DNA from: an archaeon GW2011_AR5
GTDB lineage: Archaea > Aenigmatarchaeota > Aenigmatarchaeia > GW2011-AR5
Assembly: GCA_000806115.1 (NCBI GenBank)
Contig: JWKQ01000002.1
Coordinates: forward strand, 174,551-238,550
Direction of reading: 5' to 3'
Length of the DNA: 64,000 nucleotides
Of this stretch, positions 2,097-56,078 are shown in pieces. Position 1 is the first letter of the stretch, and every line of letters begins with the position of its first letter. The translations under genes were made by a program, and so were the position numbers. The notes under the pieces were generated by a model that worked only from the letters and a program-made list of their open reading frames with translations, did no database searches and was not told the DNA's origin.

Positions 2097-3755
2097 TTAT
2101 CTACCCAGCATCCCGAATATTTCTTCAAGGCTTATCTCAAATGCAACAACCGGCTTTTCAAGCCCCCAGTTGTTCAGCACCTGCGGATGTATTTCGCCTA
2201 TGTATCCTGCAATGTCCTTGCCAATTATCACTTCGGCAGTCCTGCCTTCTATGAAACTCGGATGAGAGCACGCTTTTAGTTTGTACGATATTCCAAGGTT
2301 TCTTAGCATCGCATCAAGAGCGGACGAAATTGTCTCGTAGTTGACAACACTGGCAGAGACTGCGGCTGCAAGCTTCTGCACGTCTCTTGACCTTGTTTCG
2401 GTATTTGCATTAAGGATACAGTTGCCTATTTCGAATATGTTATGAGGATATTCTATATGCTGATTCCTGCTCAGGAATTCCATCATGCCCGGGAGAAGCC
2501 ATGTGCGAAAAACAGACCAGTTCGCGGACGTCGGTTTTTCTATTTCTATCGCATTTCCGTTCGTGTTCATCTTTGCATAAAGGTTGTCGGGGCTTGTAAG
2601 GGTGTATGAAAGTATTTCCTGGAAACCTGCGCCTAACATTGCATATGCCAAACTGTCAAGAAGAACCTGCTTTCTCGTAAGGCTGCCTTTCGTGGGCAGC
2701 TTTGGAGCTGCCGGCTCTATTTTATTGAATCCGTACGATATCAGGATGTCCTCGACAACATCCCTTTCGTGCATTATGTCAGACCTGTAAGCAGGATAGG
2801 AAAGGTCGATATATTTGCCGTTTATTTTAGCTTCATACATGGCTTTCTCAAGCAGGCTAATTATTTCTTTTGGAGGAAGGCTCAAGCCGGAAACTTTGCC
2901 TATATAGTCGCTCCTCACGCGGAATCTCTTCGGCGACAAATCGGGCGTTGCAAGAATTTTTTTGCCGTAAACTATGTCCACGCTGAATAGTGCGCAGCCG
3001 CGCTCGTGAAGCGCGGCAGCCATGACGTTGAGCGCGGTGTTGAGGAATTTCATGCTGAATCCGCTGCACTCGATGAATACGTCCTTCGTGCTTTCAGTAA
3101 CCTTGCCGCTGTGGTCGGAATTTATAATCGGAGGCATGGACAGGATTTCCCCCTGGGAGTCGACAAAAATTGGATACGCGTTTTTTCCCTTTAGAAGATG
3201 CCCGTATTCCTTGCCCTTCTGATGCCTTTCAAGGATTTCATCCGCGCTCATTTTATTTTTATGTTCAAGAGGCACGAATTTTATGTCACGGGGTTTGAGC
3301 GCCCTGAATGTCACAGGGAATTTTATTTTGTCCAGATCATAAACACCTATTGCAACTTCTTTCCTGTTTGCGCCGAATGTCCCGGAAATCTTTTCCTGAA
3401 GCTGCAACAGCTGGGACATTATTACGGCATTTATTTTCAGACCCTTTGCGATCATGCATACAGTATAAGGCCTTACGCCGCTGACGCTTGAATCAACAAT
3501 TACACTGGCGCCGGACTTCTTGATTGTATACTTTGGCATGCCAGGCTTGTATCTCGCCCTTATCTCTCTTGCGAGGCCTTCTACACTCCAGAGGTCCGGC
3601 CTGTTTGTGTCCTTTATGTCTATCTTGAGATTGTCGCCGTTTACGTCGTCAAGCTCGCTCTTCGCGTAGAGAAGTTCGTCGAAAAGCTGTTCGCCGGTAA
3701 GTTTGCGCCCGATAAGGCTGCACATGTCTTTTTGCGATACGTCTATTTTTGGCAT
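2097..3755 (-). CDS. pheT: Phenylalanyl-tRNA synthetase beta subunit
   Basis: DTNRPDLWSVEG, PAYRSDIMHERDVVEDI, FRTWLLPG, GEIHPQVL. Confidence 0.96.
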   Translation of the reverse strand: MPKIDVSQKDMCSLIGRKLTGEQLFDELLYAKSELDDVNGDNLKIDIKDTNRPDLWSVEGLAREIRARYKPGMPKYTIKKSGASVIVDSSVSGVRPYTVCMIAKGLKINAVIMSQLLQLQEKISGTFGANRKEVAIGVYDLDKIKFPVTFRALKPRDIKFVPLEHKNKMSADEILERHQKGKEYGHLLKGKNAYPIFVDSQGEILSMPPIINSDHSGKVTESTKDVFIECSGFSMKFLNTALNVMAAALHERGCALFSVDIVYGKKILATPDLSPKRFRVRSDYIGKVSGLSLPPKEIISLLEKAMYEAKINGKYIDLSYPAYRSDIMHERDVVEDILISYGFNKIEPAAPKLPTKGSLTRKQVLLDSLAYAMLGAGFQEILSYTLTSPDNLYAKMNTNGNAIEIEKPTSANWSVFRTWLLPGMMEFLSRNQHIEYPHNIFEIGNCILNANTETRSRDVQKLAAAVSASVVNYETISSALDAMLRNLGISYKLKACSHPSFIEGRTAEVIIGKDIAGYIGEIHPQVLNNWGLEKPVVAFEISLEEIFGMLGR

Positions 3756-5014
3756 TAAACTATCACCTGTTTTCTCAACCAATCAAGATTCTGGCTGAAC
3801 ATATCCCTGATGTCATTTATGCCAAGCTTGAACATTGCAAGCCTGTCAATGCCCAATCCCCATGCAATAACAGGAACGTCTATTCCGAGCGGCTTTGTAA
3901 GTTCCTCGCGAAATATACCGGCGCCGCCGAATTCAACCCAGCCAAGCTGCGGGTGCTTCGCAGAAAGCTGCACAGACGGCTCCGTGAAAGGGTAATAGTC
4001 CGGCATAAATTTTATTTTCTCCGTCCCGGCGAACTCAATCGCGAATTCTTTCAGCAGCCCGAGAAGGGCGCGGAAATTAAGCGATTCGTCAATGACAATC
4101 CCTTCAGTCTGGTTGAATTCACTTCCATGAGTCGCGTCTATTACATCGGGCCTGTAGCAGCGCAGTATGGCAAAATACTTCCCCGGAATGTCGGGTTTGT
4201 TTGCCATTGTCCGGGCTGACACCGCGGTTCCATGTGCCCTTGGCATCAACTGGGCAGCTTTCCTGGGATCCCATTTATACTGCCAACCGGTGCTGCCGGT
4301 ATTCCCGCCGTTTTCATGGGCAGCCTTGACGCGCTCAACTATCGACTTTTCGGGAAGTGACCCTTCTTTCGTGCTCTTCAGCGAGTATGTCTGCGTCCAG
4401 TCGCGGCTTGGATGGTTCTGCGGCTGAAACAGGGCGTCGAAATTCCAGAACTCAGTTTCGATGGTGGGACCTGTCATTTCCTGGAAGCCCATTTCTACAA
4501 GCTTGCGCCTCGCTTCCTGCAGGAACCTGTTGTACGGCTGGCGCTTGCCTATGTGCAGCGTCTTTCCGGCAGCCTCTACGTTATAAGGTTTAAGTCTTGT
4601 TTTCTTCCACACTCCGGTTTTTATTATGTCCGTGTTCAGGTTGATTATTTCCTTTCCCGCAAAGCGCTCGGCCCGTTCCACAATACCTTCGCCTTTTTTC
4701 TCCGCCAGTTTTCTCTGGATTAGGATTTGAAGTACGTCTTCCGGCAGTTCCTTTCCAGCCGCAAGATCCTTCATAGATTCTGTCTGCTCATCTATTCCCC
4801 TGATTTTGTCCTCAATGAGAATAAGGTTGCCGTGGGACACCTCGATGCATTTGTACTTCTTGCACCATTGGAGCGCAATAGAGAACTCGTTTCCCAGGAC
4901 ACCGCTCGCGTCTTTCATGCTGATGCCGTTCCTCTCCTTTATGAGCTCTATAAGCCTCTTCTCCGGCAAGCCGTGTTTGAGATAACGCTTTCCCTCGCCT
5001 GTTAATTCGTACAT
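3755..5014 (-). CDS. pheS: Phenylalanyl-tRNA synthetase alpha subunit
   Basis: FWNFDALFQPQNHPSRD, YYPFTEPS, AWGLGIDRLAM. Confidence 0.96.
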   Translation of the reverse strand: MYELTGEGKRYLKHGLPEKRLIELIKERNGISMKDASGVLGNEFSIALQWCKKYKCIEVSHGNLILIEDKIRGIDEQTESMKDLAAGKELPEDVLQILIQRKLAEKKGEGIVERAERFAGKEIINLNTDIIKTGVWKKTRLKPYNVEAAGKTLHIGKRQPYNRFLQEARRKLVEMGFQEMTGPTIETEFWNFDALFQPQNHPSRDWTQTYSLKSTKEGSLPEKSIVERVKAAHENGGNTGSTGWQYKWDPRKAAQLMPRAHGTAVSARTMANKPDIPGKYFAILRCYRPDVIDATHGSEFNQTEGIVIDESLNFRALLGLLKEFAIEFAGTEKIKFMPDYYPFTEPSVQLSAKHPQLGWVEFGGAGIFREELTKPLGIDVPVIAWGLGIDRLAMFKLGINDIRDMFSQNLDWLRKQVIV

Positions 5015-5055
5015 GTTAATCACTTGGCTGGCAGCTTATTAATCCGTTTTTTATT

Positions 5056-5283
5056 TCACGAAAAGAACCATTTATCACTGCCGTAATTCCTCTTTTTCTC
5101 GCGTTTATACCAGACGCTCACGGCTCTGCCGTCTCCCGTCACATATGTGCGGGCGGACCCGTGAAGCAGAAGCTCGCTTTTTGCCCTTTCAACATATTCC
5201 AGGAGGTCATTGGGACAGTCATGAATGCCGTATCTTGTAGTCGAGCCATTTTCCCTTATGCTAATCCTCAATCTCGAGTCCAT
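5056..5283 (-). CDS. Hypothetical protein
   Basis: 75-aa ORF co-oriented with, and overlapping the end of, the upstream HTH gene. Confidence 0.45.
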   Translation of the reverse strand: MDSRLRISIRENGSTTRYGIHDCPNDLLEYVERAKSELLLHGSARTYVTGDGRAVSVWYKREKKRNYGSDKWFFS

Positions 5284-5581
5284 TCAAACCCCTCCAACAA
5301 AGTTCTAGCCAAATATGTAAGCCTAATATGTCCATTGCTCTCTACAAGTCCGCATCTTTTCAACACTCTTATGGAGTTCCATATGGCAGATTCTGAACAG
5401 TTCAGTTCGGAAGAAACTGAGCGGACCATGCCGGAGATATTTTCAAGCTTTGATAGAGAAAGCCGCCTGAGTATGTGTCTCTGTTTTTGTGTCAGTCTTT
5501 CCTGGGCGATTTTTCGTGCAAGAATCAGATAGCTATAGCGATAATCTCTATAGCCTGCTTGAATTGGTACGGCATCGCCAT
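5268..5581 (-). pseudogene. Winged-helix HTH protein, apparently frameshifted by a 17-nt hairpin insertion
   Basis: C-terminal wHTH (SELNCSESAIWNSIRVLKRCGLV). ATG at 5581 follows GGAAGTG and is in frame only if 17 nt of the 5534-5552 TATAG..CTATA palindrome are removed. Confidence 0.5.
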
Positions 5582-5653
5582 CACTTCCATTTGCTTGGAT
5601 AAAGAGCTTTTTAAAACTATTCTGCAGGAAATGTTGGAGTTGAAATTGTTTTT

Positions 5654-5748
5654 TATAGCTGACCAACTTAATATTCAAGATCACAAGTTGGTCGCATATA
5701 GTGAATCAAGTTGTAATAATATCCGAATTCTTTACTTGTTTCACTATA
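5654..5748 (-). repeat. Family A element, divergent subtype (like 52106)
   Basis: 95 bp with TATAG..CTATA ends; stems GACCAACTT/AAGTTGGTC and GTGAATCAAGT/ACTTGTTTCAC. Confidence 0.75.
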
Positions 5749-5763
5749 AGTTGAAAGTTCAAG

Positions 5764-35510: not shown

Positions 35511-36334
35511 AAGAAATATTTTCCGGCGTATTCAGGGACGGAAACAGGGTTTACACGGCTAATCTTAACCCCGGGAAGAGCGTCTACGGAGAAAAACTGC
35601 TGGATATAGTGAACCCAGAAAAGAAACACGACATGAATTCTGGGTTCACAGATAGTTCCCAAGGAAATAATACAAGAAAGAACGAAGTTCTTTCTGTACA
35701 GCAAGAATCGAAGATTCTTGCTCGTATCCATAATGTTTCCTTGGAGAACTATAAACAGGCAGACGCAAAACAAACAGACGCCGAAGGCGTCATGCAGCTC
35801 AGAGAATGGGATCCGAGAAGAAGCAAACTCGGCGCCGCTATAACAAACGGCTTGAAGGAATTGCCTGTCAAGCCGGGAAGCGTAGTTCTTTACCTTGGAG
35901 CTTCGACAGGCACCACAATTTCTCACGTCAGCGATATTGTAGGAAAAGACGGTTTTGTTTATGGCATTGAGTTTGCAGAGAGAGTTCTGAGGAATCTTCT
36001 GGACCTGGCGAACCGAAGAAAGAACATAGCGTCGATGCTCGGCGACGCAAGAAAGACGGAACAATACAGGTGGGTTGAGGAATGCGATGTTGTGTTCTGC
36101 GACATAGCAGATCCCCAGGAAACGGAGATAGCAATCCGCAACTGCGAGTTCCTGAAGAAGGGCGGATACCTGATGATAGCGATAAAATCCCAGAGCATAG
36201 ACGTCACGAAGAAACCGAAAGACGTGTACGAACAGGAGAAAAACAAGCTGGAGAAGGCAGGCTTCAGGATTATACAGATGATTGACCTTGAGCCGCACGA
36301 AGAGAAGCATGCCATGATTGTTGCAAAGAAGTGA
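35507..36334 (+). CDS. flpA: Fibrillarin (2'-O-methyltransferase) with ~60-aa repeat-derived insertion
   Basis: PGKSVYGEKL..[insert]..REWDPRRSKL, VLYLGASTGTTISHVSD, IKSQSID. Confidence 0.93.
   Translation: MKEIFSGVFRDGNRVYTANLNPGKSVYGEKLLDIVNPEKKHDMNSGFTDSSQGNNTRKNEVLSVQQESKILARIHNVSLENYKQADAKQTDAEGVMQLREWDPRRSKLGAAITNGLKELPVKPGSVVLYLGASTGTTISHVSDIVGKDGFVYGIEFAERVLRNLLDLANRRKNIASMLGDARKTEQYRWVEECDVVFCDIADPQETEIAIRNCEFLKKGGYLMIAIKSQSIDVTKKPKDVYEQEKNKLEKAGFRIIQMIDLEPHEEKHAMIVAKK
35605..35753 (+). repeat. Family A element inserted in frame in fibrillarin (149 bp; two extra nested GAA-loop hairpins)
   Basis: Matches 27675 and 628; removing 147 bp (leaving one TA) keeps the frame. Confidence 0.92.
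35762..35797 (+). repeat. Family B element in fibrillarin
   Basis: GACGCAAAACAAACA-GACGCC-GAA-GGCGTC-ATGCAG, encoding DAKQTDAEGVMQ. Confidence 0.8.
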
Positions 36335-36944
36335 TTTCGTGGGAAAAATAAAAGTGATATTCTTTGATATTGGCGGGGTTTATTGCAGGGAGTCAGGAGC
36401 CTGCGCCGTAATGAAGGCTTCGAATTTGACAAATAGAAGCTTTGAGGACGTATTGAAAATATTTCACGAGATATGGAAAGACTTCGGAGTTGGAAATGTG
36501 TCTCCGGAGGAATATTACAGTTTTCTGTCGTCGGAACTCGGAATCGACACCGGCACTCTGGCAGAGATATGGACCGATGACGAGCTCTTTGTCATAAACC
36601 CCGACGTGGAGTCCTTGATAGTTGAGTTGAAAAAGAGGAATTATACGGTTGCATCAATAACAGATGTAGATCCTATCCACACAAAAATCAGGACGGAGAG
36701 GGGCATATACAATGCATTTGAATTTGTTATTGACTCCATTTCTGTGAGGGCGCAGAAAAAGTTCGGAAAGGTGATATATGAAAAGGCGCTGGAAATGGCT
36801 AAAACAGAACCCGAAGAATGCATCATGATTGACGACACTCCGGAAAAGCTTGTTCCAGCAAAAGAGCTCGGAATGCACACGATTCTTTTCATGGATGCAG
36901 GACAACTGAAAAAGGAGCTTATGGAATTTGGCGTGGAAATCTAG
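36318..36944 (+). CDS. HAD-superfamily phosphatase
   Basis: FFDIGGV motif I, MIDD motif IV. Confidence 0.88.
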   Translation: MLQRSDFVGKIKVIFFDIGGVYCRESGACAVMKASNLTNRSFEDVLKIFHEIWKDFGVGNVSPEEYYSFLSSELGIDTGTLAEIWTDDELFVINPDVESLIVELKKRNYTVASITDVDPIHTKIRTERGIYNAFEFVIDSISVRAQKKFGKVIYEKALEMAKTEPEECIMIDDTPEKLVPAKELGMHTILFMDAGQLKKELMEFGVEI

Positions 36945-37990
36945 TTTTTGTTGACCAATTTTATCAGTTCTTCCCTGAATTTTTCCCAGTTCTCAGCTGA
37001 CACCGTTGCGCCCGCCGCAGCCTCATGCCCGCCGCCGGAGCCCCCGACAGAGTTGGCAGCCTTTTGCATGACACGCCCCGCATTGATGTTCTTTGCCTGG
37101 TTCCGCGCCGACGCTTTGATGCGGTTCCCGCTGCGCTCGTATATTACCACAAGGTTTTTCTGGTAGCCTTCGCTTATTTTTGTGGACAGTGACGACCCGA
37201 GATTGAATTTTGACTTTATGTTGTAGAATACAATCCTGCCTATCTTCTCAGAGTGCTCCTCCGCGTCCTGCAGGAGCGAAGCCATTTCCTTCTCTATTGT
37301 ATCGCGGGCTTCAATCATCTTGTCGGCGTTCTTGGTTTCCTCGAAATTCTCAAGGGATGCTTTTTCGAACACGTCAACCATCTGTTCGCAGGACAGGGCA
37401 TTGACAGCCCGCGTCGATGAAATCATGTCGGCTATTCTCCCCAGCTTCGTTCCATAGAGCGGTTCGCTGAGTTTGTACTTTTCCTTCAATGATTTCACGA
37501 GATCCTTCGAATCGTTAAGGTTGTAGTCGGACACCATTCCGACTCCCGCTATCCAGAGGTCTTCTGACATATCAGACAGCTTTGAGCATATTTTGTAAAC
37601 GCAGTAAGAAGTTGACATGTAAACATCGTGCTGCTCCATCCTGGGATTGTAATGTACAATGTTTTTGCTGTTCATATTTTTGAATATCTGGTGGTGGTCC
37701 ACAATCATGATATCGCAGATGCCGCCCAGCTTCTTCAGAACGTTCTGCTGCTGGTCCGCCGCTATGTCAAGAAATATTATCTTGTGGGGAACCGTGGTTT
37801 GTATCCTTTGTATGATGTTCTTGTCCATCGGCATCGGCTGGTTTATTATGTAAGGCTTCTTCCTGCCAGTTTTTGCCAGGAACTTGTTCAGGAGAACGCA
37901 TGAGCAGATGCCGTCTCCGTCGTTGTTGAACACCACGACTATGTCATCCTTCTCAGATATATTATTCAGGAAATCAACGGCTTTTTTCAT
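36941..37990 (-). CDS. DHH/DHHA1 phosphoesterase (RecJ-like)
   Basis: NDGDGIC, IVDHH, SAR, GGGHEAAAG. Confidence 0.88.
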   Translation of the reverse strand: MKKAVDFLNNISEKDDIVVVFNNDGDGICSCVLLNKFLAKTGRKKPYIINQPMPMDKNIIQRIQTTVPHKIIFLDIAADQQQNVLKKLGGICDIMIVDHHQIFKNMNSKNIVHYNPRMEQHDVYMSTSYCVYKICSKLSDMSEDLWIAGVGMVSDYNLNDSKDLVKSLKEKYKLSEPLYGTKLGRIADMISSTRAVNALSCEQMVDVFEKASLENFEETKNADKMIEARDTIEKEMASLLQDAEEHSEKIGRIVFYNIKSKFNLGSSLSTKISEGYQKNLVVIYERSGNRIKASARNQAKNINAGRVMQKAANSVGGSGGGHEAAAGATVSAENWEKFREELIKLVNKN

Positions 37991-38054
37991 GCGAATCAAC
38001 TGGTAGAAAATCATTGGATAAAGCGTATTAAAAATGATGAAAAGAATGTCATGA

Positions 38055-40943
38055 CTATTCGTATATTTTTTGCAGCGTCTCTATTTTGAAAGAGACTTTT
38101 TCGTCCTCCAGCTGCACCTGTCCCGTAGGCTTCTCTATGGGGCCGAATATTATGTTCTTGGCGCCGACCTTGTCTCGTATCTCTCTTTCAAACTCCTGCA
38201 TGGAGTCGTTGTCAAGGTAAAGGACAATCTTGTCTTCGACAATGAGTTTCTGCAGTTTCCTGTGGCTCTGGATTTCCCTAAGAAGTTCGCGCATCAGAGC
38301 CTCCGCCTTGAGCACGTTCTTGCTCACATATACTGTGCCCTTGGAGAAAGCTTTCGAGTAGCCTTCAGATTTTCCATGCGAAATATATTTTGAATTTGTC
38401 ATGTTCTTCAGGACCTTTTCAAACGTTATGAGGCAGCCCTTCACGGTTTCATCGTCGCTTTCGATGTAAACGTTCTCCACGGGCCATCTTATCTTTACGT
38501 TGTTCTCCTTTCTTACTGCGTTGGCAGTCTCGATTATTTCCTGGACTATTTCCATCTCTTTCTCAATCTGCGGGTTTGCGTATTTCTTGTAAGGCTTCGG
38601 CCATTTGCACATGTGGACGCTCTCTTCCTTTCCGAGCTCCCCGATCTGATAAACGTGTTCCGCGAAGAACGGGCATGCGGGCGCAAGAAGTTTCGAGCAC
38701 TCTTTTGCAACCTCGAAGAGCGCGAACATTGCCGATTGCTTGTCGCTTCCGGAGTATGTCGGCCATACGCGATCCCTTACCATCTTGATGTATACCCGCG
38801 AGAAGTCATTCAGCATGAAGTTGGTTATGGCGTTAACCGCCTTGTGTATGTTGTAGGTTCTGTAATGTTTCGTAACTTCCTCTATCAGGTTGTTGAGGCG
38901 CGAGAGTATCCATGCGTCCTCAGGCTCCAGGTCTTTCACTTTTTTCGCTTTCGGGGCGTAGCTCTTGACATAATTGTAGGTGTTCTCGAGAACCATGAAT
39001 GATTTCGCTATGGCGTCTACATCAGTCCACTTGAAATAGAAATCCTCCCACGGAGCCGACGAGAGCAGGTAGAGGCGAAGCACGTCGCGACCGTACTTGT
39101 CTATGACTTCCTCGGGCGATATTATGTTGCCCTTGCTCTTGGACATCTTGCTGCCGTGCGCATCGAGAGTGAATCCGTGAAAAAGTATGTTCTTGAACGG
39201 CGCCTTGTTGAATGTTATGACGCCGGTTATGAGCTGCGAGTTCCACCAGCCCCTTATCTGGTCGGGACCTTCTATGTTCAGGTCAGCTGGCCACATATTC
39301 TCGAAAAGCTCCTTCCTGTTCGGATAGCCGAGCGATGCCCAGCTTGCAAGTCCCGAGTCAAACCATACGTCCAGTACGTCATGAATGCGGCTCATTTCTT
39401 TCCCGCATTTGCAGGGAAGCCTGATATCGTCTATGTAAGGCCTGTGCAAATCCTTCAAAGTGTAAGACGCAGATTGCATGACGCCTTTGGCGTCTTTCTG
39501 TTGTGCGTCAGTCAGTTTCGGAAGCTCGTTTGATGAGCCGATTATTTTTACCTCTCCACAGCTGCATGTCCATATCGGCAGCGGTATTCCCCAGTAGCGC
39601 TGCCTGGATATCGGCCAGTCGCCCAGGCTGTTCAGCCAGTTCTCGAAGCGCTGTCCGGCCCATTCAGGATACCATTTTACTTTTTTGTTCTCCTTGAGCA
39701 GTTCCTTCCTGATTTGCGTAACCTTGAAAAACCATTGTGTGACTGCCATCTCAAGGAGCGGCGAGCTGCACCGCCAGCAGAGCGGGTAGTCGTGAGTCAC
39801 TTTTTCCTCGTGCAGAAGAAGGTTTCGTTCTTTTAGTATGTCAATTATCTTTCTGTCTGCAGTCTTGGCAAAAATCCCCGCAAACTGCCCGCATGTTTCG
39901 TTGAATGTTCCGTCAAGTTTGAGCGGCGAGATTATTGACAGTCCGTTCTCCACGCCCACTTTATAGTCTTCCTGGCCGAAACCCGGTGCAGTGTGAACCA
40001 GCCCCGTGCCCGATTCCAGCTCAACATACTGTTCTGAAAGCACAACGCGGTGTTTTACAGGTTCCTGAAACTTGAATATGTCGATGAGTGGGTGCTCGTA
40101 CTCGAGCCCGTCAAGCTTCTTGCCTTTCATCGTTCCGATTATCTTATAGCTAGTCACGCCGGCACGCTTCATCACGTCGTCCATCAGGACTTTCGCCATT
40201 ATCAGTGTTTCTTTGCCAACTTTCACCTTCACGTAGTCTGCAGAGGGCTTCGCCATTATCCCCGTGTTGGACGGCAGCGTCCACGGCGTGGTTGTCCATA
40301 TTAGCAGAAAGCCATCCTTTGTAGGGAATTTTACATAGACCGACGGGTCTGACACCTTTGTATACTCGATTTCATTGTATGCTACGGCAGTCTCGCAGTG
40401 CGGGCAGACATGCACGGGATAAAGTCCCTGGTAAAGCAGACCTTTCTCGAATGCTATCTTGAACGTGTGCCACGCCCCTTCTATGTATTCGTTGTCGAGG
40501 GTAAGGTACGGGTTCTTCCAGTCCATCCACACGCCCAAGTTCGCGAACTGCTGGTTCATGATGTCTATGTATTTCGTGGCAAATTTCCTGCATTCGTGCA
40601 CGAATTTCTCTATGCCGAGCTTCTCTATGTCGCTCTTCGATTTTATCTGAAAATCTTTCTCAACTTTGTTCTCTATCGGCAGGCCGTGCGTATCGTAGCC
40701 GGGCTGGTCCCACACGTCGAATCCGCTCATCCTCCAGAATCGGATGTATGTGTCCTTGAGAATCTTGTTCCACGCAGTTCCCATGTGTATGGAGCCTGTT
40801 GCATAAGGAGGACCGTCAAGAAAATAGAACTTTTTCCGGGAACTGCCTGACGCTCCGCGCCCTTTTGACGACTCTTTCAGCTTTTCGTATATACTCCTGG
40901 CTTCCCAAAAGCGTTTTATTTCTTCCTCATGCGACTTGTTCAT
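38055..40943 (-). CDS. ileS: Isoleucyl-tRNA synthetase
   Basis: DGPPYATGSIHMG, WTTTPWTLP, ISRQRYWG, DQIRGW, KMSKS. Confidence 0.97.
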   Translation of the reverse strand: MNKSHEEEIKRFWEARSIYEKLKESSKGRGASGSSRKKFYFLDGPPYATGSIHMGTAWNKILKDTYIRFWRMSGFDVWDQPGYDTHGLPIENKVEKDFQIKSKSDIEKLGIEKFVHECRKFATKYIDIMNQQFANLGVWMDWKNPYLTLDNEYIEGAWHTFKIAFEKGLLYQGLYPVHVCPHCETAVAYNEIEYTKVSDPSVYVKFPTKDGFLLIWTTTPWTLPSNTGIMAKPSADYVKVKVGKETLIMAKVLMDDVMKRAGVTSYKIIGTMKGKKLDGLEYEHPLIDIFKFQEPVKHRVVLSEQYVELESGTGLVHTAPGFGQEDYKVGVENGLSIISPLKLDGTFNETCGQFAGIFAKTADRKIIDILKERNLLLHEEKVTHDYPLCWRCSSPLLEMAVTQWFFKVTQIRKELLKENKKVKWYPEWAGQRFENWLNSLGDWPISRQRYWGIPLPIWTCSCGEVKIIGSSNELPKLTDAQQKDAKGVMQSASYTLKDLHRPYIDDIRLPCKCGKEMSRIHDVLDVWFDSGLASWASLGYPNRKELFENMWPADLNIEGPDQIRGWWNSQLITGVITFNKAPFKNILFHGFTLDAHGSKMSKSKGNIISPEEVIDKYGRDVLRLYLLSSAPWEDFYFKWTDVDAIAKSFMVLENTYNYVKSYAPKAKKVKDLEPEDAWILSRLNNLIEEVTKHYRTYNIHKAVNAITNFMLNDFSRVYIKMVRDRVWPTYSGSDKQSAMFALFEVAKECSKLLAPACPFFAEHVYQIGELGKEESVHMCKWPKPYKKYANPQIEKEMEIVQEIIETANAVRKENNVKIRWPVENVYIESDDETVKGCLITFEKVLKNMTNSKYISHGKSEGYSKAFSKGTVYVSKNVLKAEALMRELLREIQSHRKLQKLIVEDKIVLYLDNDSMQEFEREIRDKVGAKNIIFGPIEKPTGQVQLEDEKVSFKIETLQKIYE
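39466..39509 (-). repeat. Family B element in frame in IleRS
   Basis: Reverse complement GACGCA-CAACAGAAA-GACGCC-AAA-GGCGTC-ATGCAATC-TGCGTC, encoding DAQQKDAKGVMQSAS. Confidence 0.82.
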
Positions 40944-40977
40944 GTTTAACACTTTCTAAATAAATGATTAAAAGGGG

Positions 40978-41271
40978 CTAGGATTCAGACCTAGCTAGTT
41001 TTGCTGCGTCTGTCGCATCCACAAGAAAATATTTGCCTTTTTGAGGACCAATTTCGCCGCGACGGACTGGAACAGTCTGATCTTTCCATGTCAGGAGATA
41101 TTCTCCCTTATGAGAATGGACTGGATAGATACCTAATCTTTTCCCGTCTGGATCGTAAACTTTTACATTGCTTTTTCTAGGTCTTTCATTTCTTACAAAA
41201 TCTTGGTCGTTTCCTACCATTTCTCTACACCTCGTTTGACACTCGTACATCCCCGCTGAATTTGGAATCAA
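40978..41271 (-). CDS. Hypothetical protein
   Basis: 97-aa ORF; start uncertain. Confidence 0.5.
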   Translation of the reverse strand: MIPNSAGMYECQTRCREMVGNDQDFVRNERPRKSNVKVYDPDGKRLGIYPVHSHKGEYLLTWKDQTVPVRRGEIGPQKGKYFLVDATDAAKLARSES

Positions 41272-41300
41272 AAAGAAGCAGGGAAAATTATCGGTTTTAT

Positions 41301-41392
41301 TACTGTGAAATCAGAAAAGATTTTTCAATAATTCTGATTTCACATATAGTTCGCAAGGAAATAATAGATTTCTTTATCCTTGCAGAACTATA
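41301..41392 (+). repeat. Family A double-hairpin element
   Basis: GTGAAATCAGAA..TTCTGATTTCAC-ATATAGTTCGCAAGGA..TCCTTGCAGAACTATA. Confidence 0.85.
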
Positions 41393-41494
41393 ACCAATAA
41401 TCAGGCTAAGCAAGTTGTTCAGGATTATGCTTAGCTTCTGCATGGCTTCTCTTTTGGCACCAGAACTTATAAGCTTTTCAGACAGCAGAGAAAT

Positions 41495-41848
41495 ATGGAG
41501 TGCGAGCTATGCGGCAGGCAGAATGCAAATGCAAGGGTAGAGGTGGAAGGCACCTCTCTGACAGTATGCGAAACCTGCTCGCGTCTTGGAAGGCGCCTTG
41601 ACCCGATGGTTGTTGAAATGAAGGGCAAAAAACCGGCAGAAATCGGGACGTCTTCGATTAACCCGAAATTTGCGACTATTGTCATGAATGTGCGCAAGAA
41701 GCTCGGTATGAGCATCGAGGAACTAGGGAAGCGCATCAATGAAAAAGCTTCGGTGCTCGAACGCGTGGAGAAGGGCATGCGGCCAACCGACGCCTTGGCA
41801 AGGAAGCTGGAAAAGGCGCTGAAGATTAAGCTGCTCGATTTCGAGTAG
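41495..41848 (+). CDS. Archaeal multiprotein bridging factor aMBF1 (Zn ribbon + HTH)
   Basis: CELCG..VEG..VCETC..G and HTH EELGKRINEKASVLERVEKG. Confidence 0.88.
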   Translation: MECELCGRQNANARVEVEGTSLTVCETCSRLGRRLDPMVVEMKGKKPAEIGTSSINPKFATIVMNVRKKLGMSIEELGKRINEKASVLERVEKGMRPTDALARKLEKALKIKLLDFE

Positions 41849-41901
41849 CCCACGTTTCTTTATTAAATATGTTTTCTGAATACTGAATATATGTTACAAA
41901 T

Positions 41902-41975
41902 GGCAGCTATGGTGTAGCTTGGTAGCATATGGGCCTGTGGAGCCTCTAGGGCGGGTTCAAATCCCGCTAGCTGCC
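41902..41975 (+). tRNA. tRNA-His(GTG), intronless, genome-encoded G-1
   Basis: G-GCAGCTA/TAGCTGC-C; CT-GTG-GA loop; GCGGG-TTCAAAT-CCCGC. Confidence 0.9.
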
Positions 41976-41979
41976 CTCT

Positions 41980-42486
41980 TTACAGCGTCTTTTCCAGGTA
42001 CCACAGGACCTTCCCGTTCTTGAATTCGTCTTCCCTGTCTTTATTTTCTATATGGACGAACTTGTTCCTGAGGTAGAATTCGATTCCTTTTTTGTTGTGC
42101 CTGTTGCAGAATGTATGGTATTTCCTGCAAGCCTTGTCGCGCAGAAAATTCTCGCAGTGAACTAAAAGCTGCCTGCCAATTCCCTGTCCAATATAATCCA
42201 GATCAAGATACAGCCTCAGAAGTTCCGCCTCACCTTTCTGGTTTTCTTCCGTGACATGGCAGAATCCTATTATCTTCCCGTTCAGTTCGGCTATTGCAAA
42301 GAAGTCGATTCCGCTCTCTGCCCTGTTCAGTGAAAGAGTTAGGCTTTCGTCGGAGTAATATTCATCTACAATACTTTTCAGAGAGTCTTTTGGCAGATAG
42401 TTGTATGCGAAGAGCCAGCCTTTCAGGGCGATTTCATGAACTCTTTTGAAATCCCTTCTTTCCAGTTGCCTTATTGAGAAATTCAT
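41980..42486 (-). CDS. GNAT acetyltransferase
   Basis: LYL..DYIGQGIGRQLL, N..GIEFY. Confidence 0.85.
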   Translation of the reverse strand: MNFSIRQLERRDFKRVHEIALKGWLFAYNYLPKDSLKSIVDEYYSDESLTLSLNRAESGIDFFAIAELNGKIIGFCHVTEENQKGEAELLRLYLDLDYIGQGIGRQLLVHCENFLRDKACRKYHTFCNRHNKKGIEFYLRNKFVHIENKDREDEFKNGKVLWYLEKTL

Positions 42487-42550
42487 TATCTAAGAATGTG
42501 TTTTTCTTTTAAAATTCATTCTGTATGCCGCGTTCCATATAAGGAACACA

Positions 42551-42826
42551 TTATCCTAACCGCTTGATGATATGCCAGCCGAACTCCGTTTTGACTGGTT
42601 GTGACGTCTGCCCCTTCTCGAGAGCGAATGCAGCCGTTTCGAAAGGTTTTACCATCTGTCCGCGGCCGAAAGTTCCGAGGTCGCCGCCCTTCTTGCGCGA
42701 AGGGCACATGGATTTCTGCTGTGCCAAGGCTGAAAAGCTTGCCCCGTCCGCCAGTTCCTCGAATATTTCCTTCGCTTCCTGCTCAGTCTTCACCAAAATG
42801 TGCGCGCAGTGGACCTGATTTGACAT
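42551..42826 (-). CDS. ppiC: Parvulin-type peptidyl-prolyl isomerase
   Basis: HILVK, S.CPS...GGDLG.F.RGQMV..FE, TEFGWHII. Confidence 0.92.
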   Translation of the reverse strand: MSNQVHCAHILVKTEQEAKEIFEELADGASFSALAQQKSMCPSRKKGGDLGTFGRGQMVKPFETAAFALEKGQTSQPVKTEFGWHIIKRLG

Positions 42827-42991
42827 GTGGTAAAATGTCCCACCTAAACTTTAAATAAGTCCGTACTGCAAGAGAGGTTGTGATAGACATGGAGTGTAAA
42901 ACTGGTGGATTAGTTCACATCTGTCAAAAGGAAAAAGGTTGCGCTTAGTGACAGCTCCATATCGGCATCGAAAAGCAAATCTTTTCGCAGC

Positions 42992-43147
42992 GTGTTCTTT
43001 TCTGTTTCTGTAGACGCGAAAGGCAGAATTATTCTTCCTTCTGGAATACGCAAGACGCTGGGTTTCAACACAGGAGATAAGCTTGAGCTGGCCCTGTCTG
43101 TTTCTGAAGGTAAAATCATAATCAGGAGGGATAAGTATGGAATTTAG
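42992..43147 (+). CDS. AbrB/MraZ/SpoVT-family DNA-binding protein
   Basis: Manual translation VFFSVSVDAKGRIILPSGIRKTLGFNTGDKLEL..GKIII; GTG start uncertain. Confidence 0.7.
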   Translation: MFFSVSVDAKGRIILPSGIRKTLGFNTGDKLELALSVSEGKIIIRRDKYGI

Positions 43148-43304
43148 CGAATATCTAGAAAAGCTCGACGTTTTGGAGAAATTAAAAAATGCATCAATTC
43201 GCCTGCCCGAGGAGTATAGAACATGTGCGATGGAAATCCTAGACAGATTGGAGAATATCTATGACATGGCTCTTATCGAGTCCGGCAGGTATCCAACTTT
43301 TTGA
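43137..43304 (+). CDS. Small hypothetical protein (55 aa)
   Basis: MEFSEYLEKLDVLEKL..; GGAGG SD; overlaps the end of the AbrB gene. Confidence 0.5.
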   Translation: MEFSEYLEKLDVLEKLKNASIRLPEEYRTCAMEILDRLENIYDMALIESGRYPTF

Positions 43305-43313
43305 GATGGTTAT

Positions 43314-43487
43314 ATGAAATGGTTCTATGAGATGACAACTGACGAGAGAAAGAACGCGAGGCCACAGGATATAATTATAGGATTTGACAGACTTGACAAA
43401 GTTCCCATAACTCTTGACAAGTTGTACATAGTTTGGGCTGAAGAAATTTCCACCGATTTAAATCGGAAGGAACAAAGATATAAGTGA
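43314..43487 (+). CDS. Small hypothetical protein (57 aa)
   Basis: MKWFYEMTTDERKN..; fills the gap before hisS. Confidence 0.4.
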   Translation: MKWFYEMTTDERKNARPQDIIIGFDRLDKVPITLDKLYIVWAEEISTDLNRKEQRYK

Positions 43488-43492
43488 TTCAT

Positions 43493-44752
43493 ATGACGCA
43501 ATTTCAGCCGCCCAGGGGCACGCGAGATTTCCTGCCGGAAGACATGATAAAGCGACAGTTCATACTTGACAAGGCGCGGGAAACTTTTGAGCAGTGGGGC
43601 TTCGACCCGCTTGACACGCCGGCGTTCGAGGATTTTGCGCTGCTTACGGCAAAGAGCGGGGAAGCCGTCAAGGACGAGATATACTACTTCAAGGACAAAT
43701 CAGACCGGGAGCTGGGCTTGCGTTTTGACTTCACTGTTCCCATGTGCCGCGTCGTCGCGAACAATCCAAATCTTCCGAAGCCTTTCCGGCGCTACCAGCT
43801 CGGGACTGTGTGGCGCTACGACCGTCCCGGAGCGGGAAGATATCGCGAGTTTTGCCAGGCGGATATCGATATAGTCGGCGCGCCCGGGCCTGAAGCTGAC
43901 ACGGAAGTGGTTGCCTGCGCATGCGAGGTGCTGCGGAAAATCGGGCTCTCGAACTTCTACGTCCGCATCAATAACAGGAAGATAATAAGCTCGTTTCTGG
44001 AAGGGTTGGGTGTTGACGCCGTCAGCGTGATGAGGACGGTTGACAAGCTGAACAAAATCGGCGAAGATGAAGTTGAGAAGGAGCTTGAAGGAAAAGGCAT
44101 CAAAAAAGACGACATAAAATCCATAATGAAATTCGCGAAAATAAGGGAAATAGACAGGGCGGTTCCGTTGATAAAGGACGACAGGGGCAGGGAAGGGATA
44201 GACGAATTGTACGTCCTTCTAAAGGGGCTTGAAAAATTCAGTTGTGCTGTAGAGGTTGACATGAGCATGGTGCGCGGACTCGAATATTACACAGGAAACA
44301 TATTCGAGATAATGCAGAGAGGCAGCGAGTTAACCGTCACGGCCGGCGGGCGGTACGACAGGATGATCGAGGCGTTCGGCGGGAAGCCGACGCCTGCCAC
44401 GGGCATCTCGCTCGGCGTTGACCGCCTTGTGAATTTCATCCAGGTCGAGCTCGGAAAAACGGGTGTGGAGGTTTACCTGGCCAATGTCGACGAAAAGAGC
44501 AGGGAAAAATGCATGGAACTCGCAAAGCAGCTGAGAGAAATTGGAGTAAATGTTGAATACGACGTTATGCAGCGTCCCCTTGTCAAGCAGCTTGATTACG
44601 TGAACAGCAGGGGCATAAAATATGCTATTGTTGTCGGCGAGAAGGAAACAAAGAGCGGCGTGGTCAAGCTGCGCAACATGCAAAGCGGGAGCGAGAAGGA
44701 AATCGAGGTAAGGAATCTGAAACGGGTAAAGGACGTCGTTGATTCCGAATAA
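43493..44752 (+). CDS. hisS: Histidyl-tRNA synthetase
   Basis: PRGTRDF, LRFDFTVP, GRYREFCQAD, VRGLEYYTG, GGRYD. Confidence 0.96.
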   Translation: MTQFQPPRGTRDFLPEDMIKRQFILDKARETFEQWGFDPLDTPAFEDFALLTAKSGEAVKDEIYYFKDKSDRELGLRFDFTVPMCRVVANNPNLPKPFRRYQLGTVWRYDRPGAGRYREFCQADIDIVGAPGPEADTEVVACACEVLRKIGLSNFYVRINNRKIISSFLEGLGVDAVSVMRTVDKLNKIGEDEVEKELEGKGIKKDDIKSIMKFAKIREIDRAVPLIKDDRGREGIDELYVLLKGLEKFSCAVEVDMSMVRGLEYYTGNIFEIMQRGSELTVTAGGRYDRMIEAFGGKPTPATGISLGVDRLVNFIQVELGKTGVEVYLANVDEKSREKCMELAKQLREIGVNVEYDVMQRPLVKQLDYVNSRGIKYAIVVGEKETKSGVVKLRNMQSGSEKEIEVRNLKRVKDVVDSE

Positions 44753-44864
44753 CTGGATTTTAGTGACTCGCATTAAAAGCATTTCTACTTTTCAAAAAAT
44801 ACGTTACGAGTCAGAAAAAGCCTTTATAGACGGCGGCAATTTCTCTTCGTGAGGTGTGGCAAAT

Positions 44865-44972
44865 ATGAAATGCATGGAATGCGGCTCGGACAGGATTGCG
44901 TACGATCCGACCCACGACAGCAAGTATTGCAGAGAATGCGGTATTGTAATAGAGGAGTTCGCTTTCGCTTGA
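44865..44972 (+). CDS. Stand-alone TFIIB-type zinc ribbon (35 aa)
   Basis: MKCMECGSDRIAYDPTHDSKYCRECGIVIEEFAFA; GAGGTG SD, TTTATA box upstream. Confidence 0.7.
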   Translation: MKCMECGSDRIAYDPTHDSKYCRECGIVIEEFAFA

Positions 44973-45080
44973 GCAAAAATAAAAACTAAGCGTTGCGCGC
45001 CGGTTTTGTTTACATGTTCTTATCCAAGAATGCATTGAAAACTGCCGCATTCATGCGACAGATGAAACTCAATGCATTCT

Positions 45081-45135
45081 GGATGCTATGCTCCAATGAA
45101 ACCCGCACCTTTAGGTGCGGGTTATTAGGAGCATT
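45081..45135. repeat. Family C element with IS200/IS605-like end palindrome
   Basis: ATGCTCC-AAT-GAAA-CCCGCACC-TTTA-GGTGCGGG-GTT-ATTAGGAGCAT. Confidence 0.6.
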
Positions 45136-45425
45136 TCATGCGCTTTTGACGCCTTTTTAAGGATTACAGTTTCAGATATGATTACTCTTACTTCTTCAGG
45201 AAGCCTTTCTTAGGAAGAAAGCTTAACAAAAGGATAGAGGACTTTGAATATATGTCTTTTGTACAAAGTCCTTATTGTGAACTTTGACAAGCAAAGTTCT
45301 CAATATAATGTTCTTTTTGGCTAGATTTTTTCCAAGAAAAAGTTCAAATGAATGATGTTAGAAAATCAGGACAGCTGTAACGATTTTGTTACAAAAACGG
45401 TTGTCCGGTAAAAAGGTGAATACAA

Positions 45426-54556: not shown

Positions 54557-54557
54557 G

Positions 54558-56078
54558 ATGAAGATGAAAGCAAAGGTTCTCCCGTTGAACGCCGGCGGGA
54601 AGATGATAGGAATAATCAACGAGAAAGACGCCCTTGAGCTTGGCGTTCATCCGCTTGACAAGATAGTTATGACAAGGGGGCCGAAGAAAGCAACGCTCAC
54701 TGTCGACACAACCAAGAATTTTGTAAAGCGCGGCACGATCTTGCTCTACGACGATGTGAAAGAAGTCATGCATATCAGGAGCGGCGATGCAGTGCATGTC
54801 GAGCCGAGAATGCCGCTCGTGAGCAAGGCTTACATAAGGAAAAAAACTGACGGCAGAGAGCTAAGTTATCTGGAATTGAGGGCGATAGTAGACGACGTCA
54901 TAGCGCGCAATTTAAACGATCTGGAGCTTGCGTCCTTCATCACCGCGCTTCACATACACGGCTTAACACTTAACGAGAGCATTGATTTCTCCAAGGCTAT
55001 GATAGAAACCGGAAAGAGCCTTAAGTTTCCGGGCACGGTAGTCGACAAGCATTCCATAGGCGGTGTGCCGGGGGACAAAACCTCGATGCTGGTGGTGCCG
55101 ATAATTGCCGCTTCCGGACTTACAATACCGAAAACATCCTCGCGTTCCATAACATCGCCTTCCGGCACCGCTGACAGGATGGAAATACTTGCGCCTGTCG
55201 ATCTGCATATTGACGACATAAAGAGGGTTGTGAAGAGAACGAAAGGATGTCTGGTATGGGGAGGATCTGTCGACATCGCCCCGGCAGATGATCTTTTCAT
55301 ACGCATAGAGCACCCGCTCGGCCTTGACCCGCTGCTCCTGCCGTCGGTGATGAGCAAGAAAAAATCCGTCGGGTGCAAGTATCTTGTGATAGACATACCG
55401 ACAGGTGATACAAAAATCCATACCAAAGAGGATGCGGAAAAACTGGCCCGTGATTTCATAGCAATGGGGAGGAGCCTAGGAATAAAGGTTGACTGCGCAA
55501 TCACGCGCGGAGACCAGCCTGTAGGCTACGCCGTCGGTCCGGCTTTGGAGGCAAGGGAGGCGCTGGAGGTTATCATGAACGTGCAACAGACTGACGCCAA
55601 AGGCGTCGTGCAACGCAGCGACGTCTTCGACAAAGCGGCCTCGGTAGCAGGCGTACTGCTCAGAATGGCAGGCAAAGGTAACAAGAAAATAGCGGAGCTT
55701 ATGATAAAAAGCGGAAAAGCTGAAAAGAAGCTGCGGGAAATAATAGATGCGCAGGGCGGGAATCCTGGCGTGAAACCTGGGGATATAGAAGTCGGCGCCT
55801 TCAGCTTCAGGGTACGTTCGAAAACCGGCGGAACTGTTTCAACCATCAGCAACGCAGCGCTTGTCGAAATCTGCCGCACTTCCGGCACGCCGAAAGACCG
55901 CGGCGCAGGCGTTCTTCTGAACAAGAAGATCGGTGATCCGGTGCGCAGGGGAGAAGTTCTCTTCACAATTTTTGCTGAGAAGCGCCGGAAGCTGAACTCT
56001 GCGGTAAAAACTTCAAAATCCTGCGAGGTGTACGGAATTCTGACGGGAAAAAGAAGCATGCTTGTTGAGACTGTGTGA
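54558..56078 (+). CDS. AMP phosphorylase
   Basis: DKHSIGGVPGDKT, PKTSSRSITSPSGTAD, IDIPTG, GPALEAREAL. Confidence 0.93.
   Translation: MKMKAKVLPLNAGGKMIGIINEKDALELGVHPLDKIVMTRGPKKATLTVDTTKNFVKRGTILLYDDVKEVMHIRSGDAVHVEPRMPLVSKAYIRKKTDGRELSYLELRAIVDDVIARNLNDLELASFITALHIHGLTLNESIDFSKAMIETGKSLKFPGTVVDKHSIGGVPGDKTSMLVVPIIAASGLTIPKTSSRSITSPSGTADRMEILAPVDLHIDDIKRVVKRTKGCLVWGGSVDIAPADDLFIRIEHPLGLDPLLLPSVMSKKKSVGCKYLVIDIPTGDTKIHTKEDAEKLARDFIAMGRSLGIKVDCAITRGDQPVGYAVGPALEAREALEVIMNVQQTDAKGVVQRSDVFDKAASVAGVLLRMAGKGNKKIAELMIKSGKAEKKLREIIDAQGGNPGVKPGDIEVGAFSFRVRSKTGGTVSTISNAALVEICRTSGTPKDRGAGVLLNKKIGDPVRRGEVLFTIFAEKRRKLNSAVKTSKSCEVYGILTGKRSMLVETV
55579..55625 (+). repeat. Family B element in frame in AMP phosphorylase
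   Basis: GCAACAGACT-GACGCC-AAA-GGCGTC-GTGCAA, encoding VQQTDAKGVVQRS. Confidence 0.8.

Follow-up and report, generated by a model that had tools for sequence, protein, structure and literature searches.

What could write nearly the same short peptide into three unrelated core enzymes of one archaeon, fibrillarin, IleRS and AMP phosphorylase? The question is raised by a stretch of 64,000 nucleotides (the window, G000:C2:174551-238550) of the archaeon GW2011_AR5, whose draft genome, here G000, comprises 858 kb in 3 contigs (C1 and C2 among them), with a completeness of 87.6% and a GC content of 49%. The first-pass annotation of this DNA had ascribed the peptide to a mobile palindrome of about 45 bp, family B, that was either tolerated or selected in surface loops. 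It now appears that family B very probably consists of miniature non-autonomous palindromic repeat elements which are, or recently were, mobile within one family of small-genome archaea. The palindrome is repeated, is polymorphic for its insertion, favours one reading frame, is located in loops and keeps its stems complementary.

Within the window the core GACGCCNNNGGYGTC is found at 35777, 39480, 47551 and 55593, the seven strand-matches amounting to four loci. These copies, and an array of other repeats that adjoins the first of them, are as follows.

35606..35752, plus strand: an array of about 150 nt from other repeat families, translated in frame in fibrillarin and adjoining the family-B copy on its upstream side.
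35753..35797, plus strand: long-form copy in fibrillarin, AAACAGGCA-GACGCA-AAACAAACA-GACGCC-GAA-GGCGTC-ATGCAG, encoding KQADAKQTDAEGVMQ.
39462..39515, minus strand: insert of 54 nt in IleRS, encoding LTDAQQKDAKGVMQSASY, with a fold of z = -3.3.
47538..47579, minus strand: non-coding long-form copy with the outer stem GGCGCG/CGCGCC and a double-stem fold of z = -5.4.
55581..55607, plus strand: short-form insert of 27 nt in AMP phosphorylase, GTGCAACAGACT-GACGCC-AAA-GGCGTC, encoding VQQTDAKGV.

The translations are those first quoted, ..YKQADAKQTDAEGVMQLREW.. in fibrillarin, ..ELPKLTDAQQKDAKGVMQSASYTLKDLHRPYIDD.. in IleRS and ..IMNVQQTDAKGVVQRSDV.. in AMP phosphorylase, all sense and in the same frame (the insert-spanning peptide stretch is ..ELPKLTDAQQKDAKGVMQSAS..). 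The names of the hosts hold, with NCBIfam scores above cut-off for TIGR00392 (IleRS, 935 bits), TIGR03327 (AMP phosphorylase, 556 bits) and NF003276 (fibrillarin, 242 bits). The copy in IleRS is a double-stem long form, GACGCA-CAACAGAAA-GACGCC-AAA-GGCGTC-ATGCAATC-TGCGTC, that in fibrillarin is without the right outer arm, and the insert in AMP phosphorylase is followed by a direct repeat of GTGCAAC that is seen at no other copy. The fourth, non-coding copy does have the covarying outer stem that had been claimed for it, GGCGCG/CGCGCC in place of GACGCA/TGCGTC, with one G-T pair in the inner stem (GACACC/GGCGTC on the plus strand). Its place is a spacer, with a small open frame of the minus strand on one side and a tRNA gene, likely intron-bearing, on the other, and the orthologous spacers of the relatives G007 and G005 are about 100 nt shorter, without the element or its outer stem (G001-G025 are relatives' genomes, L-numbers are fetched stretches and X1 and X2 are metagenome runs).

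Alignment of 15 oriented copies from G000 gives a conserved unit of about 29 nt, AAACAGAca-GACGCC-AAA-GGCGTC-AT.Ca, which is shorter than the 45 bp first proposed, and there is a nested or long form of 45-57 nt. At the core, GACGCC-RAA-GGCGTC, a GC-rich stem of 6 perfectly paired bp encloses a loop of 3 nt, and the flanks are conserved and asymmetric, AAACAGACA on the 5' side and ATGCA on the 3' side, thus the element has a direction. The short form, a unit of 27-29 nt, adds 27 nt to its host (AMP phosphorylase and the ribosomal protein uL2), and the long form with its outer stem adds 54-60 nt (IleRS, fibrillarin and a gene for an acetate-CoA ligase alpha-like protein, here ACS-like). The outer 6-bp stem is found 8-9 nt from the core in about half of the G000 copies and reads GACGCA/TGCGTC in IleRS, the ACS-like gene and fibrillarin, GACGCG/CGCGTC at C1:31322 and GGCGCG/CGCGCC at window 47538; as these stems vary on both sides yet stay complementary, pairing is kept. 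In RNA folding the long copies form a double stem (z = -3.3 to -5.4) and the short copies the inner hairpin only.

Across all fetched genomes a perfect outer stem of at least 6 bp is found in 18 of 90 distinct copies, against 3.4% after shuffling of the right flank, the sequences of the outer stems are diverse, and some copies carry even a third stem. In other organisms the outer stems CCTTTTC/GAAAAGG or CCTTCGAA/TTCGAAGG mark repeated units of 65-90 nt, and as these subfamilies repeat as units the core seems to be a constant module with the outer layers as subfamily marks. Insertion into the loops of pre-existing hairpins was considered and rejected, as the orthologous spacers of the 47551 copy in G007 and G005 are without the GGCGCG/CGCGCC hairpin, and the variable outer stems were likewise rejected as target hairpins, several of them being repeated 65-90-nt subfamilies instead. 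For RNA genes the idea may still hold, a copy in the 16S rRNA gene of G016 does occupy an existing helix.

Chance does not account for these numbers. The core was matched in none of 100 dinucleotide-preserving shuffles of the window (mean 0.00, maximum 0), and GACGCC-NNN-GGYGTC occurs at 15 loci across the 858 kb of G000, with 0 for the reversed pattern that served as the genome control. GACGCC is the commonest perfect 6+3+6 hairpin stem of this genome (14 copies), to which a profile search adds a degenerate copy at C1:265685-265726 plus weaker ones. In the proteins of G000 the peptide DA[KE]GV occurs 6 times against 0.72 expected, with five of the six encoded by the exact palindrome and the remaining one by a derivative with 2 mismatches, so that in genome and proteome alike the motif is far more frequent than chance would have it. 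The possibility of GACGC being a restriction-type word was rejected, its frequency is neither above nor below expectation (2218 observed, 2228 expected). Rfam found tRNAs only over the window, with no match at any of its family-B copies, and viral contigs gave 0 matches to ACAGAMNGACGCCRAAGGCGTCRT. Perfect 6+3+6 hairpins as a whole number 349 in G000 against about 210 expected, and the over-representation of other stems, such as TGAAGC with 11 copies, suggests that there are further small hairpin families.

That three proteins are hit was borne out, with the correction that there are at least five in G000: TDA[KE]GV lies in frame in fibrillarin, IleRS, AMP phosphorylase, uL2 and the ACS-like protein. 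Orthologues were found to hold no equivalent of the insert in 27 of 27 relatives for IleRS (18 aa, 54 nt), in 28 of 29 for AMP phosphorylase (9 aa, 27 nt) and in 28 of 29 for fibrillarin (58 aa in total, of which the last 15 are family B and the remainder comes from other repeat families). Each exception has a copy at the same site, a degenerate ..QYAKGINRSA.. in the AMP phosphorylase of G022 and a full long-form family-B copy, KQTDAQQKDAKGVMRPGVIQ, in the fibrillarin of G004. For AMP phosphorylase a search of genome contigs returned homologues of at most 50% identity only. The insert in uL2 (KHTDAKGVI, 9 aa, 27 nt) is absent from 21 of 21 orthologues, this protein scoring 266 bits with NF007180 against a cut-off of 265, and that in the ACS-like protein (19-20 aa, +57-60 nt), which scores below its equivalog cut-off, is absent from 14 of 14.

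The location of the inserts agrees with the surface loops first proposed, as judged from structure models for two proteins and from length variation for the third. In the AlphaFold model of fibrillarin (mean confidence, pLDDT, 85.5) the insert falls between the strands 31-35 and 95-101, and blocks of ten residues over 41-90 score 48-55 in a protein whose core exceeds 90. In that of AMP phosphorylase (mean 88.2) it falls in the loop between the helices 328-339 and 355-370, with residues 341-350 at 59, thus the models support low-confidence loops at both inserts. The spot in IleRS would be a length-variable loop between two Cys pairs, as nine more distant relatives have 4-7 other residues there and a solved IleRS structure has a different variable segment. 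Among relatives, open frames of about 1500 aa for IleRS (L006 in G006, L020 in G012 and L021 in G025) and of about 920-950 aa for AMP phosphorylase (L082 in G006 and L090 in G003) match G000 in two blocks, as expected for inteins.

The reading frame is not random either. Open frames of at least 150 aa contain 45 of 74 exact cores, read as DAxGV in 31, TPxAS in 9 and RxxRR in 5, with a binomial p of 1.2e-6 against one third that is overstated, as the copies are related and a few are orthologous. The middle residue of DAxGV is K in 14, S in 6, E in 4 and F in 2. By our own reading five of the six frames of the family-B consensus are open. What the remaining open ones encode is either strongly basic or hydrophobic and rich in Cys, which is why a selective filter suffices to explain the bias. 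A bias of this strength would also argue that the element is translated. An archaeal bulge-helix-bulge intron (3-nt bulge, 4-bp helix and 3-nt bulge at the borders) was rejected, the folds have 6-bp stems with an internal loop of 8-9 nt and no such motif.

Comparison with the relatives supports the mobility that had been suggested for the palindrome: its copy number varies, relatives have insertions that G000 is without, and a shorter allele of IleRS exists. In 23 genomes of the same family there are 0-27 exact cores per genome, with all reversed controls at 0; G011 has 27, G022 has 7, G010 has 6 and G004 has 5, and genomes outside the family have 0-1. Family-B copies occupy different sites in different species. 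A protein of G001 has an 11-aa insert without counterpart in its G000 orthologue, and one of G012, which from its FPGWHIECSAM motif we take to be CysRS, has a 9-aa insert, KQTDAEGVM, that the G000 orthologue is without. The source organism is present in groundwater and soil metagenome runs from several studies, and a pattern scan of metagenomes found the core in 16 contigs. A metagenome AMP phosphorylase that is 94% identical retains the insert (L257), and two metagenome genes with 85% and 74% amino acid identity to G000 carry +27 and +57 nt that have no counterpart in it. In each of X1 and X2 one contig joins position 39455 to 39518, in X2 with 8 other letters, giving a net loss of 54 nt from IleRS; with 68 matching letters on the shorter side and at least 90% likeness in the flanks, this short allele is probably from a close relative rather than from the same strain. 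Other joints, with sides of 20-26 nt, were taken for repeats or for variation in tRNA introns and carry no weight here.

We infer that the copies arise by transposition-like copying, for which the hairpin, perhaps in single-stranded form, would be the substrate. As DNA, a mini-hairpin closed by C-GAA-G is unusually stable, and the design resembles that of REP elements, which makes a single-strand DNA route plausible, as a lead and not as a result. Copies would land anywhere and selection would then purge most of the genic insertions, the survivors being those with a length that is a multiple of three, in a loop that accepts extra residues and in the one frame that gives the hydrophilic [KQ]QTDA[KE]GV[MIV]Q. 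The outcome would be lineage-specific insertions of 9 to 20 residues in essential proteins, together with the extension of a 16S helix tip in one relative. Between the two options first left open, tolerance is favoured for the inserts because old copies decay, and selection is not.

A number of observations weigh against a mobile element of this kind. The orthologue alignments that had been proposed as a way to find any target duplication gave no consistent one in five filled and empty pairs for G000 and two for a metagenome relative, and at the compared sites there were no terminal inverted repeats beyond the nested stems and no consistent junction sequence. Microhomology at empty sites (the longest k-mer shared between the consensus and 18-nt windows) was not above the background of the same gene, with p = 0.24-1.0 in 10 comparisons and 0.03 in one. 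No active transposition event was seen. The term coding here means open frames of the stated length, called without the use of gene predictions. Two sites are moreover filled in genomes that are not sisters. The IleRS tree, the single-gene tree upon which any inference of recurrent sites rests, pairs G004 with G009 (100/100) and G002 with G006 (100/100) and places G000 outside both pairs. The fibrillarin site is filled in G000 and G004 and empty in G009, G002, G006, G001, G008 and G005, and the AMP phosphorylase site is filled in G000 and G022 and empty in G016, the sister of G022. At each site the same codon would have gained a copy twice, or copies would have been lost precisely several times, and such sharing weighs against random insertion because random insertion predicts it only rarely.

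The same direction is taken by the search for a mobilising enzyme. G000, at a completeness of 87.6%, yielded no Y1_Tnp (PF01797), IS110, rve or DDE_3, and for TnpB only a sub-threshold match of 16.7 bits. Of nine genomes of the same genus, six have Y1_Tnp, and these six have 0-5 core copies each. It was not found in the high-copy G011, G022 and G010. Mobilisation by Y1/IS200 was rejected since copy number is uncorrelated and the IS200-like end hairpins differ. Reverse transcriptase is present in G000 and G011 and also in two genomes without any copy, G003 and G017, and searches of G022, G010 and G004 found none; one of the type found in diversity-generating retroelements (DGR) was rejected as mobiliser, its presence does not track copy number and it is unlinked to the element. 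DDE_Tnp_1 was rejected as well, its two paralogues in G000 are diverged, have no recognisable or shared ends and show no link to the element.

Other explanations were weighed against the mobile element with these points in mind. The lack of a target duplication, of terminal repeats and of an enzyme is what would be expected if no transposase were involved and a broken or stalled DNA end copied the hairpin stretch by template switching during repair or replication and then returned. Such templated insertion would also suit the variable boundaries of the inserts (+27, +33, +54 and +57-60 nt), and an empty site at G000 C1 ~140140 contains CCGAAGG, the centre of the element. It is nevertheless improbable: empty-site microhomology stays at background in 10 of 11 comparisons, and both the 29-nt unit with asymmetric flanks kept across genera and the 65-90-nt subfamilies that propagate whole fit a defined element better. 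A hairpin selected as a functional RNA or DNA cis-element (for instance a binding site, a signal in processing or stability, or a pause in translation), with the peptide as a by-product, would account for an inner stem that is perfect in most copies and for outer stems that keep pairing despite two-sided changes, and many copies are indeed sense to the neighbouring genes, including those in the spacers C1:79071, C1:289069 and C2:149822, with some common to several species. Against this, the position relative to genes is not fixed (N-termini, mid-gene loops, spacers, rRNA), the closest orthologues of the same essential genes are without the hairpin, older copies lose pairing as the frame stays open (synonymous changes at C1:265698; also C1:426125 and C2:34871) and Rfam is silent at every copy in the window, so that a cis-element is quite improbable.

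It could be that the peptide TDAKGV is itself the selected unit, for example an interaction or modification site spread among proteins, as 31 of 45 long-frame copies are read in one and the same frame and a degenerate copy retains QTDAKGVMQS through two synonymous changes. This is very improbable given that non-coding copies are as well kept as coding ones, that 14 of the 45 use other frames (TPKAS, RRQRRH), that five of the six G000 peptides have no synonymous variants, that the inserts are modelled with low confidence and without structure, and that the host proteins share no pathway. G000 is a 3-contig draft, which leaves room for chance or an assembly artefact of a metagenome-assembled genome; this is rejected as next to impossible with 0 matches in shuffles and reversed controls, the same inserts in independent metagenome contigs (L257, L258), recovery of window:35400-40400 with its two copies in runs from several studies, and all inserts in frame.

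A bolder version of the mobile element can also be put forward. The hairpin, of 27 nt, may spread with no transposase known for it and with neither a target duplication nor terminal repeats, structure or site being what directs it, with the same codon hit independently (in fibrillarin in G000 and G004, in AMP phosphorylase in G000 and G022) and with a 16S helix tip as a further landing place. This is unlikely, albeit worth stating, as ultra-small archaea would then have a mode of insertion that is new and that modifies both loops of proteins and rRNA, and precise excision may be the reverse of it. The helix-tip copy, in G016, extends the tip to 60 nt where the Rfam model has 2. The 16S rRNA gene of G016 (L177, C8, 1556-2976) has insertions of 60, 90 and 74 nt, the 90-nt one inside the conserved GCCAGC-CGCGG (530-loop) region and intron-like in appearance, and that of G000 (L097, C2, 1179-2989) measures 1811 nt over the 1478-position Rfam model.

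Hairpins of this size have parallels in bacteria. In-frame selfish palindromes are textbook for Rickettsia, REPs are extragenic and accompanied by a RAYT gene, and the SDR elements of cyanobacteria are hairpin-forming mobile units of 21-27 nt that can nest. Family B resembles the SDR elements as mobile hairpins of a few tens of bases and in its nesting, and we know of no systematic in-frame writing into essential proteins by them. Judged by its features and not by its sequence, family B would have its closest known case in the Rickettsia palindromic elements (RPEs). PMC10969869 describes these bacterial elements as about 150 bp long and in frame in unrelated housekeeping genes, with a family-specific peptide at positions predicted to suit the protein fold and no own transposase known. 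What is shared is a repeated palindrome in a reduced genome that gives an in-frame family peptide in unrelated genes, here five in G000. The length of about 100-150 bp is not shared (unit of about 29 nt, inserts of +27 or +54-60 nt), and family B, at 27-29 nt or 45-57 nt in its long form, is five times smaller as well as archaeal, and is found also at a 16S helix tip in a relative.

With REP and REPIN sequences, which RAYT (Y1) transposases mobilise (PMC3116915), family B has in common very short hairpins, a few tens of nt in length, a 5' flank that is conserved and asymmetric (AAACAGAca 5' and AT.Ca 3' here), the lack of a target duplication, a widely varying copy number and stems that co-vary. 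It differs in that about half of its copies are intragenic (45 of the 74 exact cores) and, in contrast to REP/RAYT, in that PF01797 was found neither in G000 nor in the highest-copy genome, G011, nor in G022 or G010. The MITEs of archaea and bacteria (PMC10969869) are non-autonomous and multicopy, occasionally fuse in frame with host open reading frames and have as their defining marks terminal inverted repeats and target-site duplications that come from a parent IS; family B has neither and is far smaller than usual MITEs. Full-text literature searches returned no archaeal report of in-frame palindromes, bearing in mind that the supplementary tables of the MITE survey PMC11602168 might list elements from such archaea, and among the papers that name both "Rickettsia palindromic" and archaea none describes such an archaeal case.

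If the mobile element is the correct explanation, its unit is near the smallest size recognisable as a mobile element, and it reshapes essential and slowly evolving proteins (IleRS, uL2, fibrillarin), and the 16S rRNA of a relative, in genomes under strong reduction. Marker proteins of small-genome archaea often have lineage-specific inserts, of which it would be a tangible origin. Alignments and phylogenies can be misled by such inserts, which also serve as natural maps of loop tolerance in essential proteins.

The remaining copies in G000 are found in a variety of settings. A copy at the N-terminus of PEP synthase is in another frame (RRQRRH) and is common to G000 and G007, one in an OB-fold protein is common to G000 and G006, and one is at the first codons of a SIS-domain protein. 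A Cys-rich protein of 442 aa carries TTPSAS, a motif also present in a similar Cys-rich protein of G004. The copies in spacers include one 167 nt upstream of the 16S rRNA gene. The copy in an MBL-fold protein (C1:265698) retains QTDAKGVMQS with two synonymous changes that break the stem, and there are further degenerate copies at C1:426125 and C2:34871. In L232 (G009), L236 (G021) and L239 (G014) an exact core encodes DA[SK]GV in the context VSMVHE..DAxGV..NYL[VI]NL, in a frame of 720 to 1230 aa that occurs in three genera and has no homologue in G000. The motif is either native there or an old copy that became fixed.

The repeats next to the family-B copy in fibrillarin belong in part to a second family, whose unit measures about 100 nt and encloses a module of about 52 nt, there being 47 matches in G000 to window:35600-35760. 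Typical copies match positions 6-73 and 126-156 of the query, the middle (72-125) matches elsewhere independently, and the family is found at C1:223508-223659 and at about 45 other places. Few 6+3+6 hairpins of G000 are more frequent than those of this family, which have AGAATC and AAGAAC stems.

Two further kinds of mobile DNA were encountered. IS200-like Y1 genes (L164 at G004:C85 2393-2827; L240-L243), of which six of the nine same-genus genomes have 1-4 each and none was found in G000, have in common a left end of about 90 nt with a GCAGCC-(C/A)GAA-GGC(C/T)GC hairpin. At C2:53.9-56.3 kb G000 has a DGR-like locus of which no family-B host gene is part, and no GACGCC hairpin follows its variable repeat. 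Within L269 (G000:C2:50500-58500; ~3396-5751, minus strand) the reverse transcriptase gene adjoins a template-like repeat which, by our own count, has 11 of its 12 differences from the copy at the 3' end of an upstream 237-aa gene at A positions, an arrangement that resembles a diversity-generating retroelement. Three extra segments are present in the template copy, and one of them, of 58 nt, contains a family-B-like hairpin, AACAAACA-GACGC-ATAT-GCGTC-AT, with an outer stem of 11/12 bp.

The tRNA gene beside the non-coding copy, at window ~47640-47810 on the plus strand, is likely split by a long intron and was not called by Rfam at gathering score. Its halves are conserved in G007, G005 and G008, with a spacer length that varies among metagenome contigs. 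Introns seem to be common, since of the seven tRNA matches in the window five are 102-136 nt long.

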